DNA of 64,000 bases from Pseudomonadota bacterium (GTDB lineage Bacteria > Pseudomonadota > Alphaproteobacteria > Rickettsiales > UBA1997). Location of the stretch: contig JAZKFV010000012.1 of NCBI GenBank assembly GCA_040386195.1, forward strand, positions 64,342 to 128,341, given 5' to 3'. Numbering within the stretch: position 1 is the first letter of the stretch; each line of letters starts with the position of its first letter. The notes below the pieces were generated by a model, which made no database searches, was not told the DNA's origin, and saw nothing but the letters and a program-made list of their open reading frames with translations. Positions 19,175 through 24,653 of the stretch are shown piece by piece. The translations under genes and the position numbers were made by a program.

Positions 19175-19672
19175 ATGAACTTTAGCCAAGAACTGCTTGA
19201 TCAAGCCCAGAAACTTGTGGATTTGGCGGTAAAATCCAACATCAAAATTGTCAGCGCTGAATCTTGCACTGGCGGGCTTATTTCATCTTTGATCACTGAA
19301 ATTTCCGGCTCATCAAAAATTTTTGAACGCGGTTTTGTGGTTTATTCTAACTTGGCAAAAGAGCAAAATCTTGGTGTTGATGCAAAAATTTTAAATCAGT
19401 TTGGAGCAGTCAGCGAGCAGGTTGCAAAGGAAATGGCAATTGGCGCGCTTAAAAATTCTGCTGCAAATTTAAGTATTGCCGCAACTGGAATTGCCGGAGA
19501 AAAATCTGACGACACCCAAAAGCCAGTTGGCTTAGTTTATATTTCTAGCTTTAATAATTTGAATCAAAAATTGATCATTAAAAAATTTAATTTTTCGGGC
19601 AATAGAGCCGAGAATAGAATTTTAACCGTTCAAAATGCTCTAACAATTTTAATGTCGCAAATCAATGATTAA
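19175..19672 (+). CDS. CinA C-terminal domain / nicotinamide-nucleotide amidohydrolase PncC-like protein
   Basis: 165-aa ORF with the characteristic VSAESCTGGLISSLITEISGSS and ATGIAGE...PVGLVYI. Confidence 0.8.
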   Translation: MNFSQELLDQAQKLVDLAVKSNIKIVSAESCTGGLISSLITEISGSSKIFERGFVVYSNLAKEQNLGVDAKILNQFGAVSEQVAKEMAIGALKNSAANLSIAATGIAGEKSDDTQKPVGLVYISSFNNLNQKLIIKKFNFSGNRAENRILTVQNALTILMSQIND

Positions 19673-20762
19673 AAAACTCTCAATTCTAACGCTAATTTTT
19701 CTATTCAGCTCTTGCTCTTTCACTAGTTTAATTATCAAAGGCAGAGGTGATTTAAAATTAAAACAAGTGAGTTTTGAAGATTTACCCGGATGGAAAAAAG
19801 ATCAACAAAATCGGGCGGTAATTTCGTTGGCTAATTCTTGTCGTCAATTTGCCAAAATGCCGGAAGACAAACAAATTGGCGGGCAAATTGGCAATATAAA
19901 TGTGGCGGATTTTCATGATGTTTGTGATATTGCTGAGGTGATTAAAGGAATGAATAACCAGCAAGCGCGCAACTTTTTTGAAAATTGGTTTGTGCCGTTT
20001 GAAGTTTCAAATCGTAGTGGCAACAATAAAGGTTTGTTCACCGGCTATTATGTTCCTGAGCTTAAAGGCAGCAAAGTTAAAACTGAAATTTATCAATATC
20101 CAATTTATGCCAAGCCAAAAAATGCTGCTGATTTAGATTTAAACAGAGAAGAAATTGAAGAAGGCGCTTTGGCAAATAAAGATTTGGAATTGCTTTATGT
20201 GGACAATCCGGTGGATTTATTTTTTATGCAAGTGCAAGGCAGCGGCAGAGTTGTTTTGGAAAATGGTGTGATTGTTCGGCTCAGTTTTGCTGGAAAAAAT
20301 AATTTACCATATTCTTCAATTGGCAAATATATTATTGAAAAAAATATTTTGGGATCGCAAAGCCCAACTTATTTCTCGATCAAAAATTGGTTAAAAAGTA
20401 ATTCTGTTGGGGCAAGACAGGTGATGAATGTAAATCAATCTTATGTCTTCTTTAAAATTTCCAACAGCGACGATGTTTTTGGATCGCAGGGCGCGCCTTT
20501 GATGGCGGAAAGATCTTTGGCGGTAGATAGTGAAATTATGCCGCTGGGTTTTCCATTGTGGCTGGATATTAATGCTTCTAGCCCTTATCAAAAATTAGTG
20601 ATTGCTCAGGATACTGGTTCGGCAATTAAAGGCGCGGTGCGTGGTGATGTATTTTTTGGGCGCGGAAAAAATGCTGAAGATTTAGCGGCGAAGATGAATT
20701 ATAAAGGAAGATATTATATTTTATTGCCAACTGCGGCGGTGGATAGAATGGTGGGAAGATAG
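19665..20762 (+). CDS. mltA: Membrane-bound lytic murein transglycosylase A
   Basis: 365-aa ORF with a lipoprotein-like leader (LIFLFSSCSF). MltA/3D-domain motifs are present: FTGYYVPEL, LFFMQVQGSGRV, LAVDSEIMPLG, and AQDTGSAIKGAVRGDVFFG. Confidence 0.85.
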   Translation: MIKKLSILTLIFLFSSCSFTSLIIKGRGDLKLKQVSFEDLPGWKKDQQNRAVISLANSCRQFAKMPEDKQIGGQIGNINVADFHDVCDIAEVIKGMNNQQARNFFENWFVPFEVSNRSGNNKGLFTGYYVPELKGSKVKTEIYQYPIYAKPKNAADLDLNREEIEEGALANKDLELLYVDNPVDLFFMQVQGSGRVVLENGVIVRLSFAGKNNLPYSSIGKYIIEKNILGSQSPTYFSIKNWLKSNSVGARQVMNVNQSYVFFKISNSDDVFGSQGAPLMAERSLAVDSEIMPLGFPLWLDINASSPYQKLVIAQDTGSAIKGAVRGDVFFGRGKNAEDLAAKMNYKGRYYILLPTAAVDRMVGR

Positions 20763-20772
20763 GCGCTTTAGA

Positions 20773-22311
20773 TTAATACATTCCATAAAGAGAAAATACT
20801 GATCCGGCGGCAAAACTTCCGCCGCTAAACTCAACTAATGTTATACTAGTTATCGCTGCAGTACTTTTCCAAGTTCCGCTCCAAGTTTCAGTAATACTTC
20901 CAGCCCCGGTGGAGTTGGAGCTGCCGGATGTTGATTTGACTGCTTTGTAAAGAGATGTTCCGTTATAGAGCGGTATTACAACTTCAAACATACTCGCATA
21001 ACTTGCCACATTTGTCCAATCGGAAATAGGAATGAAGGTATTGGTTCCATAGCCGGCAGAGGCGGTTACGTTAGTTACTCTGATATATTGCGAGATATAA
21101 TTGCCAGAGGTGGAATCACCATTAAAACGCAGCGCCGCCGTTCCACCGCTGGACATTCTTCCATAGCCAACAATTCTTAGGTGAGTAAATGTGCTGGGAA
21201 TGCTACTGAAGGTAACCGTTGAGGAGTTTCCCACCAATGTTTGAGTGCTGATGAGATCTAAGGTATTTCTGCTTACCGGACAAACAGTGCTATTGGTTGT
21301 GCAGGTGGAAATAGATGAAGCACCCCAACTTCCATAGATGCCGCAAGCTCTAATCGTTCCTCCGCCAGTGGCACAAACAGAGCAGCCATAAGAACCGTTA
21401 TTTGCCCACGAAATAGGTCCGGCTGCCGTTGCCTCAGAAGCGCTGCACATCAAGAATTGCAAACCGGCATCTCTAACCAACTGGGTTTTGGTTTTAAATA
21501 AAGTAATGTCGTCAAAATTTGCATTTGTTGAATTGGCAATAAACACTCTATCAAAACCACTGCCGGTGATAACGCAAGGAACGCAGGTATTACTATCTTC
21601 ATCACCACTACCGGAGGTGCCATTTTGAACAGTGCCAGTAGCATTATGGCCGTTAAATTTATTGGCGCCATGGCTTAGCAAAAGCACAATGCCATTTCTA
21701 TTTGATAATAAAGATGTTGATGAAGCATCTCGAATATCAATACCACCAAGATCAGTTGAGCTGGTTTGAGTGCCATTGGGCACGCCTTGAGTAATTTCAA
21801 AACCATCACTAGCGCCTATTCCAACACTTTGTTTGGTAAATCTTTTATCAACAACATAAGTGAATTTTGTTCCCCAACCATCTTCCGCCATATCCGGATC
21901 TAAGCCCAGCGCAATGATTGGCACCATTCCATAGGCTAAATTTAAGTTTGATGCATCGCTTGAATTAAAAGCCTGAGCACAAGCTCCTGTTCCAACAACT
22001 CCGCCAGCTGTGCCGGATTCTTGACCATAATTCATATTATTTGGTGTTGTTGCTGTTCCTGAGTTGTTGCCTTTTGCGATGGTTATTACAGCCGGACAAG
22101 GCAGTCTTCTATTGGTTGCTAAAAAATTAGTTAGAGCTTGATAAACAATATTCATCCGCTCTTTGGTAATTTTGGCTTTGGCATTATTAGTTGCGGTTTT
22201 AGAAATTCCTAAAGAGCCGGTAATTAAAATTGAGACGATTAGGATAACGATGGAAAGTTCAATCAAACTAAACCCTTTTTTTTCGTGGGTGTTTTTATGT
22301 TTTTTCTGCAT
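20773..22311 (-). CDS. Large prepilin-type (type IV pilin / pseudopilin-like) protein with a Cys-rich C-terminal extension, paralog 1
   Basis: 512-aa ORF. It has a class III signal, MQKKHKNTHEKKG/FSLIELSIVILIVSILI (G-1, F+1, E+5). A pseudopilin-like DGWGTKFTYVVD motif follows, then roughly 340 aa of unknown, Cys-rich sequence. Confidence 0.75.
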   Translation of the reverse strand: MQKKHKNTHEKKGFSLIELSIVILIVSILITGSLGISKTATNNAKAKITKERMNIVYQALTNFLATNRRLPCPAVITIAKGNNSGTATTPNNMNYGQESGTAGGVVGTGACAQAFNSSDASNLNLAYGMVPIIALGLDPDMAEDGWGTKFTYVVDKRFTKQSVGIGASDGFEITQGVPNGTQTSSTDLGGIDIRDASSTSLLSNRNGIVLLLSHGANKFNGHNATGTVQNGTSGSGDEDSNTCVPCVITGSGFDRVFIANSTNANFDDITLFKTKTQLVRDAGLQFLMCSASEATAAGPISWANNGSYGCSVCATGGGTIRACGIYGSWGASSISTCTTNSTVCPVSRNTLDLISTQTLVGNSSTVTFSSIPSTFTHLRIVGYGRMSSGGTAALRFNGDSTSGNYISQYIRVTNVTASAGYGTNTFIPISDWTNVASYASMFEVVIPLYNGTSLYKAVKSTSGSSNSTGAGSITETWSGTWKSTAAITSITLVEFSGGSFAAGSVFSLYGMY

Positions 22312-22415
22312 TGTTTTTAGGAGGTTTTGTTGATGAGCAAAGGCAATATTAGAGCGGAGAAATTATCTTTTTGTGGTTTTACAGTTGGGGCGAATAAATC
22401 AAAAATTAGTTGCAA

Positions 22416-23963
22416 CTAATACATTCCATAAAGAGAAAATACTGATCCGGTGGCAAAACTTCCACCGCTAAGTTCAACTAATGTAACGCTAGTTATTGCT
22501 GCGGTATTTTTCCAAGTTCCGCTCCAAGTTTCAGTAATACTTCCAGCTCCAGTGGAGTTGGAGCTGCCGGATACTGATGTGATTGCTTTGTAAAGAGATG
22601 TTCCATTATAGAGTGGTATTACAACTTCAAACATACTCGCATAACTTGCCACATTTGTCCAATCGGAAATAGGAATTGAGGTATAAGTTCCAGCTGCGCT
22701 ATAGCCGGCAGCTGCGCTTGTGTTAAATGCTCTGATAAATTGCGAGATATAATTGGCGGCGGTAGCATCGCCATTAAGACGCAGTGCCGCCGTTCCACCG
22801 CTGGACATTCTTCCATAGCCAATAATTCTTAGATGAGTAAATGTGTTAGGAATGCTACTGAAGGTAACCGTTGTGGAGTTTGCTACTAATGTTTGAGTGC
22901 TGATGAGCTCTAAGGTATTTCTGCTCACCGGACAAACAGTGCTATTGGTTGAACAGCTGGAAGTTGAAGAGGCGCCCCAACTTCCATAAGTGCCACAAGT
23001 TCTAATTGTTCCTCCGCCAGTGGCGCAAACAGAGCAGCTATAAGAGCCATTATTTGCCCATGAAATAGGCCCGGTTGCAGTTGCTTCAGTAGAGCTGCAC
23101 ATCAAAAATTGCAAGCCAGCATCTCTAACCAATTGGGTTTTGGTTTTGAATAAAGAAATGTCATCAAAATTTGGATCTGTTGAATTGGCAAGAAATATTC
23201 TGTTAAAGCTAGTAAGTCCGGAAACAGAGCAAGTATTGCAGCTATTTTCATTTTCATCAGTAACGCCAGTGCCGTTTTGTCCGGTTCCGGTGGCATTAAA
23301 ACCATTAAATTTATTAGCGCCATGACTTAGTAATAATAAAACTCCATTTCTGTTGGATAGCAATAATGTTCCTGATGGACCCTGCACATCAATTCCGGAA
23401 AGATCAGTTGAGCTGGTCTGAATGTCGTTTGGAACTCCTGGAGTAATTTCAAAACCATCACTAGCACTTATGCCAACACTTTGTTTGGTAAATCTTTTAT
23501 CAACAACATAAGTGAATTTTGTTCCCCAACCATCTTCTGCTATATCTGGATCTAAGCCCAGCGCAATGATCGGCACTGCTCCATAAACTAAATTTGGGGC
23601 GTTGGTAGATGAAACATAGCTGTAATTGCAAACTCCGGTGCCAACAGTGGCGGTTGTCACCGCGCCAGTTTCTTGACCATAAGTCATATTATTTGGTGTC
23701 GTCGTCGTTCCTGAAGTGCTGCCTTTCGCTATAGTTATTATAGCCGGACAAGGCAATCTTCTATTGGTTGCTAAAAAATTAGACAGAGCTTGATAAACCG
23801 TGCTCATCCGATCTTTAGTAATCTTAGCTTTGGAATTATTGATCGCGGTTTTAGAAATTCCCAAAGAGCCGGTAATTAAAATTGAGACGATTAGAATAAC
23901 GATGGAGAGTTCAATTAAACTAAACCCTTTTTTTTCGTGAGGCTTTTTATGTTTTTTCTGCAT
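22416..23963 (-). CDS. Large prepilin-type (type IV pilin / pseudopilin-like) protein with a Cys-rich C-terminal extension, paralog 2
   Basis: 515-aa ORF colinear with the 20773-22311 product. The leader and hydrophobic helix are nearly identical (MQKKHKKPHEKKGFSLIELSIVILIVSILI). The C-terminal roughly 100 aa are near-identical, and variable patches lie in between. Confidence 0.75.
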   Translation of the reverse strand: MQKKHKKPHEKKGFSLIELSIVILIVSILITGSLGISKTAINNSKAKITKDRMSTVYQALSNFLATNRRLPCPAIITIAKGSTSGTTTTPNNMTYGQETGAVTTATVGTGVCNYSYVSSTNAPNLVYGAVPIIALGLDPDIAEDGWGTKFTYVVDKRFTKQSVGISASDGFEITPGVPNDIQTSSTDLSGIDVQGPSGTLLLSNRNGVLLLLSHGANKFNGFNATGTGQNGTGVTDENENSCNTCSVSGLTSFNRIFLANSTDPNFDDISLFKTKTQLVRDAGLQFLMCSSTEATATGPISWANNGSYSCSVCATGGGTIRTCGTYGSWGASSTSSCSTNSTVCPVSRNTLELISTQTLVANSTTVTFSSIPNTFTHLRIIGYGRMSSGGTAALRLNGDATAANYISQFIRAFNTSAAAGYSAAGTYTSIPISDWTNVASYASMFEVVIPLYNGTSLYKAITSVSGSSNSTGAGSITETWSGTWKNTAAITSVTLVELSGGSFATGSVFSLYGMY

Positions 23964-24104
23964 TGTTTTTAGGGAGGTTTTTATTGATAAACAAAAGCAA
24001 TATACTTAGTATGGGCGACTTATTTTTAAACAAAGAAACATCACTAAACTGTGCAAAATAATCTAGTGAATTTAAACAAAATTAAAAATTTTAAGAGAGC
24101 CAAA

Positions 24105-24653
24105 ATGATCGCTACTATTTTAATTGTGGTTGCCATCTTATCAACAATTATCTGGGGGCGTTTTGTGCAAAATTCTACTAACAATTTGCCCATTCCTGAG
24201 TCAGAAAATAAAACTTATAGCGCGCCTCTGGCAATTGCTCCTAGTGATATCATCACTCAAATTGACGCTAACTTTGGCAAACCAATTTTACTTTATATTT
24301 ACACTACCTGGTGCGGGGTTTGCAAACAGCAATTTCCAATCATCAACGAAGTGGCAAGAAAATTTCAGCAAACTGATTTAAAAGTTATTGCTGTTGCCAT
24401 TGATAAAAACATCGATGCTAAAAATTTAATCAACTATTTGGAGAATTATAAAAATACTTATTTTGCTCCCGAATATTTAGTTTATAATGATGGGTTGGAA
24501 GATTTACTTAGACAAAAAAATATCAGATATAACAAAATTATTCCGCTCACGGTTTTAATTGATCGCGGCGGTGAAATTGAATTTAGATTTACGGGTTATA
24601 AAGGAGAAAATTATATCACCCGTAAAATTATGAAAACTTTGGCAAAACAATAA
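24105..24653 (+). CDS. TlpA/redoxin-like thioredoxin-fold thiol:disulfide oxidoreductase, membrane anchored
   Basis: The ORF track starts at a GTG at 24051, but the ATG at 24105 (MIATILIVVAIL, a TM anchor) is the more likely start. The active site is WCGVC in IYTTWCGVCKQQFP. Confidence 0.75.
   Translation: MIATILIVVAILSTIIWGRFVQNSTNNLPIPESENKTYSAPLAIAPSDIITQIDANFGKPILLYIYTTWCGVCKQQFPIINEVARKFQQTDLKVIAVAIDKNIDAKNLINYLENYKNTYFAPEYLVYNDGLEDLLRQKNIRYNKIIPLTVLIDRGGEIEFRFTGYKGENYITRKIMKTLAKQ

Follow-up and report, generated by a model that had tools for sequence, protein, structure and literature searches.

What do two adjacent genes encode that begin like type IV pilin genes and then run on for more than 500 codons? 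The question is raised by a 64,000-nucleotide stretch of DNA, called the window here (positions 64,342 to 128,341 of contig JAZKFV010000012.1, assembly GCA_040386195.1), from an uncultured freshwater Pseudomonadota bacterium of the Rickettsiales lineage UBA1997, whose genome is a metagenome-assembled genome (MAG) of 1.70 Mb in 32 contigs with 98% completeness. We consider it probable that both genes encode modular type IV pilins which act as pilus-displayed adhesins. In each protein a conserved core of ~330 amino acids acts as the carrier, and it is followed by a β-sandwich of ~165 amino acids, of the type carried by tailed phages at the far end of their fibre proteins. From these parts we infer cleavage of the leader, incorporation into a pilus, a position at the pilus tip and binding to a cell-surface ligand. 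The design is an unusual example of the documented modular pilins and not a new kind of system.

An earlier note, made by reading this DNA without database searches, had placed two genes for 512 and 515 amino acids next to each other on the minus strand. Their positions were confirmed, and every motif quoted in the note is present in the translations. The features of the locus are as follows.

20773..22311 (stop codon included), minus strand: pilin gene copy 1, encoding P0001 (512 amino acids); from the list of open reading frames (ORFs), the translation and the N_methyl and TIGR02532 matches.
22273..22311, minus strand: leader peptide of copy 1, MQKKHKNTHEKKG; from the translation and the Pfam and NCBIfam motif matches.
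21277..22272, minus strand: large pilin core of copy 1, residues 14-345; from the AlphaFold2 (AF2) model, homologue coverage and Cys positions.
20776..21276, minus strand: C-terminal β-sandwich module of copy 1, residues 346-512, without Cys; from AF2, BFVD and sequence clusters.
22312..22415, minus strand: spacer between the two copies; read from the sequence.
22416..23963 (stop codon included), minus strand: pilin gene copy 2, encoding P0002 (515 amino acids); from the ORF list, 79% identity to copy 1 and the N_methyl and TIGR02532 matches.
22929..23924, minus strand: large pilin core of copy 2, residues 14-345; from the alignment to copy 1, with Cys at equivalent positions.
22419..22928, minus strand: C-terminal β-sandwich module of copy 2, residues 346-515; from the alignment, 85% identical to the copy 1 module.

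Pilin core and phage-type module

Both reading frames are intact, and both proteins start with MQKKHK..HEKKG followed by FSLIELSIVILIVSILITGSL, which gives a basic leader of 13 residues ending in Gly. In both translations Gly13 is followed by Phe at +1, Glu at mature position 5 and a hydrophobic stretch, and cleavage by a prepilin peptidase is predicted after Gly13, before FSLIELSIVILIVSILITGSL. The prepilin motif match covers residues 11-33 in both proteins and exceeds the curated cut-offs, with 25.6 (P0001) and 24.3 (P0002) bits for Pfam N_methyl PF07963 (cut-off 21.2) and 26.5 and 25.4 bits, respectively, for NCBIfam TIGR02532 (cut-off 16.3). The class III signal peptide of type IV pilins, which had been recognized by its motif, is thus present in both proteins. 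They are also oversized prepilin-type tandem paralogues as described, with a mature length of 499 amino acids, and the further claim that they are surface-exposed, adhesin-like pilins is plausible.

When 113 database homologues were mapped onto P0001 by BLAST, the protein was divided at about residue 345. About 70 homologues cover residues 1 to ~345, many of them as stand-alone proteins of 310-360 amino acids, and wherever the source is named, it is a Rickettsiales or Rickettsiaceae MAG. All 10 Cys of P0001 (residues 72, 111, 243, 246, 289, 310, 313, 323, 337 and 344) lie in this part. The Cys-rich C-terminal module of ~340 amino acids that was originally described is therefore not one unit, because its Cys, at 72-344, belong to the core and the terminal 167 amino acids are separate. 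The core is composed of the α1 helix (residues 16-67), a strand region with DGWGTKFTYVVD and a middle region with the SHGANK and FDDI motifs, and in its alignment Glu5 (E18 of the precursor) is invariant, accompanied by LPCP, EDG, S-x-G (within SHGANK), FDD and four Cys that never or hardly ever vary. In the AF2 model the α1 helix (residues 16-67) leads into a globular α/β domain. Per-residue confidence (pLDDT) is 85-98, mostly >90, over residues 21-340, and the model shows the long α1 helix plus globular domain that is characteristic of type IV pilins. The best PDB fold match of the core in Foldseek is the type IVb pilin of enterotoxigenic Escherichia coli (ETEC; 9iuf_A), with a probability of 0.93 but a weak E of 0.22. 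At the sequence level, the core profile matches solved type IV pilins along α1 only, and the solved major pilins matched in this way have 138-208 amino acids. The TIGR01710 model of GspG gave 20.1 bits against a cut-off of 88.85, with the match restricted to residues 12-71, and a full-length GspG was thus not recognized.

Most related Rickettsiales genomes share the core family, often in the form of tandem arrays, and sets of 2-5 large prepilin genes in a row are frequent among its members. Most members have Ala and not Gly at -1 (K-x-A/FSLIELS, cut at the slash); both genes in the window have Gly. Several unusual forms were also seen. In other Alphaproteobacteria or Rickettsiales MAGs, two giant ORFs open with the prepilin motif (L041:11579-17224, 1,882 amino acids; L047:9030-15179, 2,050 amino acids), and a segment matching the first ~340 residues of P0001 lies within a frame of 2,495 amino acids (G017:C10:44286-45218). 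One genome of the same family (G008; 1.1 Mb, 96% complete) gave 28 separate matches to the prepilin N-terminus, scattered over many contigs and mostly in ORFs of 129-304 amino acids (one of 435), which is a striking expansion in a reduced genome.

The terminal 167 amino acids (THLRIVGYG...SLYGMY) contain no Cys, and their evolutionary distribution is unlike that of the core. Folded alone with 49 homologues, this module was modelled as 12 β-strands with a pLDDT of 91.3 and a predicted template modelling (TM) score, pTM, of 0.87. In the full-length AF2 model, which was based on a mixed alignment, the pLDDT is <50 after residue 346, and the Foldseek matches that this tail gave to CUB, C. perfringens enterotoxin and others were dismissed for that reason. 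A phmmer search with the module alone against 1.84 billion representatives of clusters at 50% identity recovered 13,317 cluster representatives at E <= 1e-3 and 1,516 at E <= 1e-10 (best E, 2.7e-35). A prepilin motif is absent from all of the 146 best matches, and in 108 of these the module forms the end of the protein; residues 346-512 are an extra module that is not specific to pili, as is found in modular pilins. Profile searches identified no Pfam or PHROGs model for it, and no sequence-related PDB chain was found.

The affiliation of the module is with phages. In BFVD, uncultured tailed-phage proteins matched it with TM scores of 0.8-0.91, E values down to 1.9e-18 and 20-30% identity. Several of these proteins carry lambda Stf repeats, FN3 or collagen repeats or are named "tail fiber", and among the listed structural matches the only functional names are 'tail fiber' and 'side tail fibre repeat'. 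The fusion partners of its sequence homologues include Phage-tail_3/Rcc01698_C and tail-fibre or head-decoration PHROGs. The module is encoded in >516 IMG/VR contigs; in 80 viral loci that were fetched (L101-L180), it is C-terminal in 227 of the 243 module-bearing ORFs, and the usual form, found in 63 of the 80, is a set of three tandem stand-alone genes for 160-220 amino acids. Some phage proteins hold three modules in one chain (e.g. L109:5348-8826). Both arrangements hint that the modules may form a three-part, pseudo-trimeric assembly. In the two viral contigs examined, the module genes adjoin tail-fibre genes. A tblastn search of cultured-phage records with the module gave two partial matches only; the family is essentially confined to uncultured phages. 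The module is thus homologous to the C-terminal domains of phage fibre-like proteins, and in phages its function is presumably fibre-distal and receptor-binding, judging from context. The fold that had been called unknown can now be assigned on both sides of residue 345: the Cys-rich part is a family-wide pilin core, and the tail is a β-sandwich common to thousands of phage proteins.

The copy 2 module is 3 residues longer than that of copy 1, owing to an insertion in the most variable stretch, at module residues ~50-85. The variable patch of the module falls where the domain family as a whole varies most and is rich in indels, and we infer from this that it is probably the ligand-facing side.

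Pilus machinery and alternative roles

If these proteins are pilins, the genome should be able to process and assemble them. The window contains none of the four machinery families searched (Peptidase_A24, T2SSE, T2SSF and secretin), as had been observed before. The absence of a prepilin peptidase or pilus machinery from the whole genome, which had been named as evidence that would speak against pilins, is not what was found; the genes are scattered, and all of them lie outside the window. A PilD-type peptidase of the bifunctional type (A24_N_bact plus Peptidase_A24) adjoins a secretin on contig 18, a GspF/PilC platform protein (T2SSF) is encoded on contig 12, ~60 kb upstream of the window, and the genome also encodes a PilB/GspE-like ATPase of 577 amino acids with an MshEN domain and a PilT-family ATPase (429 bits against a curated cut-off of 319). 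A third ATPase of the T2SSE family is VirB11 of a type IV secretion system. In 31 related genomes, a pilin match and a T2SSF platform occur together in 24 and are both missing from 6, while the remaining genome, which is 90% complete, has pilin matches without the platform; the co-occurrence has a Fisher p of ~1e-5 by hand calculation, uncorrected for phylogeny and with a pilin match that in some genomes is the N-terminal prepilin region only.

The two genes are not the only prepilin genes of the genome. At least five more were found (C3:81279(-), C14:6758(+), C27:33492(+), C27:35267(+) and C2:92300(-)). Four of them encode ~300 amino acids, and both of those that were scanned have a LamG-type tail (PF13385). 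The product of C2:92300 has 281 amino acids, Ala at -1 and a C-terminal Cys...Cys loop, and it is the most plausible candidate for the major pilin. A small classical pilin of 130-170 amino acids was not found by a motif scan of the genome.

With these components the following mechanism can be proposed. The PilD-type peptidase would remove the 13-residue basic leader after Gly13, and the hydrophobic α1 helix would let the protein enter a type IV pilus, which would be built by the PilB-like ATPase, the PilC/GspF platform and the secretin and retracted by PilT. The module would be an exposed ligand-binding head, most likely at or near the pilus tip on a low-abundance (minor) subunit, with the 281-amino-acid prepilin as the better candidate for the major subunit. 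The head would bind a surface structure of another cell, which may be a eukaryotic host or another microbe.

Several observations weigh against this proposal. The PilB-like ATPase, the platform protein and the secretin do not reach the equivalog cut-offs set for PilB, GspE, GspF and PilQ, and the apparatus could be a divergent type IV pilus, a mannose-sensitive haemagglutinin (MSHA)-like pilus or a system like the type II secretion system (T2SS). PilM, PilN, PilO and PilP were not convincingly found in the genome; the PilM search gave only weak matches, which we take to be of the FtsA or MreB type, their identity being unconfirmed. The pilin genes adjoin no pilus gene, a purine-rich Shine-Dalgarno sequence was not found upstream of either of them, and no RNA run holding pilin-gene sequence was found. 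The mature protein of 499 amino acids is far larger than the pilins studied so far, which makes its passage through the secretin questionable. The ligand of the module is only putative, head binding being argued by analogy from the phage-fibre context, and in the PDB the module is weakly galectin-like only (TM ~0.4, Foldseek).

The same doubts about the apparatus lend themselves to a different role, in which the proteins are pilin-like but work outside a long surface pilus, either in a short, T2SS-like periplasmic pseudopilus or anchored by α1 in the inner membrane, like archaeal class III signal-peptide binding proteins, with the β-sandwich in the periplasm or at the cell surface. The best score of the platform is for GspF, and that of the ATPase is nearly the same for PilB as for GspE; together with the sub-threshold scores and the undetected PilMNOP genes, this speaks for such a role. 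In addition, DGWGTKFTYVVD resembles the D-x-W-G-x-x-Y motif of GspG-type pseudopilins, and there is the N-terminal match to TIGR01710. That match is weak, at 20 bits against 88.85, and is limited to α1, and the PilT-family ATPase, which does exceed its cut-off, belongs typically to retractile type IV pili rather than to T2SS. Moreover, an outward-facing, fast-changing head of the kind used by phages for cell contact makes little sense in the periplasm, and the many different tails found at one locus (see below) fit external recognition. We therefore regard a role outside a surface pilus as unlikely.

A pilus-borne protein might also be the building block of the filament itself. In that case P0001 and P0002 would be the major subunits of an unusually thick pilus, co-polymerised or used alternately, and with a β-sandwich head on each subunit the shaft would be adhesive over its full length. 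The core family shows conservation and synteny, related genomes often have it as their most prominent prepilin family, no pilin of 130-170 amino acids that could take this part came up in the motif scan, and tandem duplicates of major pilins are known, e.g. PilE1/PilE2 of Streptococcus sanguinis (bioRxiv 10.1101/2021.01.27.428410). The mature protein is, however, more than twice as long as the solved major pilins matched by the core (138-208 amino acids), and modelling in the same preprint places bulky modular pilins best at the tip. The prepilin of 281 amino acids with its Cys...Cys loop is a better candidate, and the head is dispensable in a congener. A filament made of these proteins is thus quite improbable in our judgement, and a minor, adhesive subunit is preferred.

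History of the locus and divergence of the copies

The locus itself can be traced in relatives. Its syntenic order is ilvE, cinA, mltA, pilin gene(s), a thioredoxin-like (TlpA-type) gene and cysS. In the window, the convergent lytic transglycosylase gene mltA (19665-20762, plus strand) and the divergent gene for a membrane-anchored thioredoxin/TlpA-like protein (24051-24653, plus strand) flank the two pilin genes, and the same flanking arrangement is present in a congener ("Rickettsiaceae bacterium", JAJTCH01), which has a single core-only gene for 353 amino acids at the syntenic locus. The flanking genes are housekeeping genes and not phage genes. A functional link between the thioredoxin/TlpA-like neighbour and an exported pilin with 10 Cys is possible.

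In other congeners (L093 in G002 and L094 in G005), the core continues into Cys-rich repeat tails that are unlike the β-sandwich; the ORFs have 590 and 861 amino acids (854 in another count for the latter) and lie at or near the same locus. Among the database homologues with extensions, at least 14 tail groups are found on the same core with no BLASTP relation between groups, one of them being C1q and one Gly_rich_2. Profile comparison of two tail groups showed no relation to the β-sandwich module, and divergence from a single ancestral tail was rejected for this reason. Only one other protein, P0035, was found in the searches to combine the core and the module. A FastTree phylogeny of 266 module copies places the nearest neighbours of P0001 ~1.8 substitutions/site away, which is too deep to place the P0035 fusion. 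The locus is ancestral and syntenic, and in the source species the gene bears the phage-type head and is present in two copies.

A broader reading of this pattern can be offered tentatively, and we think it less likely than not. Aquatic Rickettsiales may keep one conserved pilin carrier locus with a repeatedly replaced head, several of these heads coming from the pool of phage tail-fibre tips. If so, the type IV pilus would work like a retractable, re-targetable tail fibre, the head would set the host or prey cell to which the bacterium attaches, and the host range would shift through the exchange of heads with phages and through gene conversion from one tandem copy to another.

The two copies were compared to see how far they have diverged. 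They are colinear, as had been stated, and not mostly identical: identity is 79% in amino acids, with 7 gap positions, and 84% in the nucleotides of aligned codons. The variable patches that had been pointed out were found near residues 81-120 and 220-260, and a third, not listed before, lies at 379-420. The ratio of non-synonymous to synonymous substitution (dN/dS) is 0.5-0.94 in these patches and 0.28 overall, and its maximum in any 40-codon window is 0.94. This indicates purifying selection on both copies, which are both maintained. Positive selection, suggested in the earlier note as diversifying selection, was rejected at the 40-codon resolution, as no window has dN/dS >1. Synonymous divergence (dS) is significantly lower in the module (0.20) than in the core (0.56; Fisher p = 4.5e-5). 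The separation of the two 3' parts is thus more recent than that of the cores, these parts having been either homogenised or newly acquired and then copied. This gives indirect support to the second suggestion of the note, a mosaic history such as gene conversion between the copies.

The region upstream of the genes was also compared. The last ~45 nucleotides before the copy 1 ATG resemble the stretch 5' of the copy 2 ATG (23964 to ~24010), and the coding strand has AACCTCC(C)TAAAAACA just 5' of each ATG (22312-22330 and 23964-23983, minus strand). The GGAGG that had been taken for a ribosome-binding site lies on the non-coding (plus) strand; the mRNA before AUG reads AACCUCC(C)UAAAAACA, in which CCUCC is the complement of a Shine-Dalgarno sequence. 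Folding of the 5' regions as RNA gave no structure that beats shuffled sequences, and no function was assigned to the conserved CCUCC. A terminator-like site was not found in the spacer between the copies.

Because tandem repeats are error-prone in assembly, and the MAG consists of 32 contigs with a GC content of 40-41% in the pilin region, slightly higher than in most of the window, one may suspect a collapsed or chimeric assembly, decaying genes or the remnants of a phage insertion; this is highly improbable, given two intact frames under purifying selection, synteny with the congener, housekeeping flanks and independent source-like contigs. These contigs come from a watershed metagenome, the likeliest source of the MAG, and cover both copies and both outer junctions with zero mismatches. 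Both copies are at about flank depth in the source-like run, and its contigs have no aberrant joints. Short pieces that are nearly identical were also found in three further metagenomes, of freshwater or cave origin. One source-like contig (X1) matches the start of copy 2 and then, at window position 23977, continues into a different upstream sequence, TTATATTTTTTCTGCATTATTTGGGGGTAT (plus strand), so that the sample may contain a second strain or a related pilin gene.

Significance and comparison with known systems

The means by which early-branching and aquatic Rickettsiales gain hold of a host are a standing question, for which the P0001/P0002 locus gives concrete candidate adhesins. Their parts are a conserved, unannotated pilin core family of ~330 amino acids and a changeable head common to phages. 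Genome surveys have reported type IV pilus genes in these bacteria and have proposed, tentatively, that the pili serve host attachment (PMC9352585; bioRxiv 10.1101/2022.10.13.511287), and the word 'pilin' is absent from both surveys. In addition, a very large domain family (>13,000 clusters at 50% identity) without a Pfam model or solved structure is exposed here and merits both definition and structure determination. If the head is the specificity determinant, comparison of heads across strains could be used to predict the range of hosts or partners from metagenomes.

Among known pilins of similar size, CofB of ETEC colonization factor antigen III (CFA/III) and TcpB of Vibrio cholerae also have ~500 amino acids and a pilin domain followed by β-rich domains that end in a β-sandwich. 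They are thought to form a trimer at the pilus tip, according to the summary given in 10.1101/2021.01.27.428410. Likewise, the core has just one notable fold match in the PDB, to an ETEC type IVb pilus. Homology to these proteins was not supported: sequence searches of the PDB with the protein, the core profile and the module profile gave no CofB or TcpB chain and no relative beyond α1, and neither protein is among the 50 best Foldseek PDB matches of either model. The 13-residue leader and the mature Phe start are also unlike those of typical type IVb prepilins, and, unlike CofB and TcpB, the genes here have no type IVb operon context.

The distal domains of phage fibres are homologous to the module, but here the module is joined to a pilin instead of a fibre shaft. 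In phages it is mostly a stand-alone gene for 160-220 amino acids present as three tandem paralogues. Bacterial chimeric fibres with swappable, phage-fibre-like tips that recognise other cells are known in the MAT fibres of Bdellovibrio bacteriovorus. Those are trimeric fibre proteins and not pilins, and the likeness is one of description only.

The closest comparison is with the modular pilins themselves, which consist of a pilin carrier and a grafted effector module that is probably exposed at the tip, and which were defined on PilB and PilC of S. sanguinis (bioRxiv 10.1101/2021.01.27.428410). There, PilB joins a pilin to a vWA module and PilC to a ConA-like lectin (Raynaud et al. 2021, PMC8179133; PMC9934059), and the grafted modules were shown to mediate adhesion (bioRxiv 10.1101/2021.01.27.428410). 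P0001 and P0002 share with them the class III signal, the pilin carrier and a C-terminal module that also occurs outside pilus biology, as well as the proposed adhesion through the grafted module. Likewise, the LamG architecture listed by Raynaud et al. 2021 is also present in this genome, in the prepilins with PF13385. The differences are threefold. First, the carrier is a disulfide-rich core of ~330 amino acids and not a small pilin module. Second, unlike the modules of the Raynaud et al. survey, the module here comes from a phage-dominated family and has no Pfam or InterPro signature, and it would therefore escape that survey. Third, the host is a diderm Rickettsiales bacterium. Many modular pilins are considered to have been missed because their modules have no database signatures (bioRxiv 10.1101/2021.01.27.428410), and the P0001/P0002 locus is such a case.

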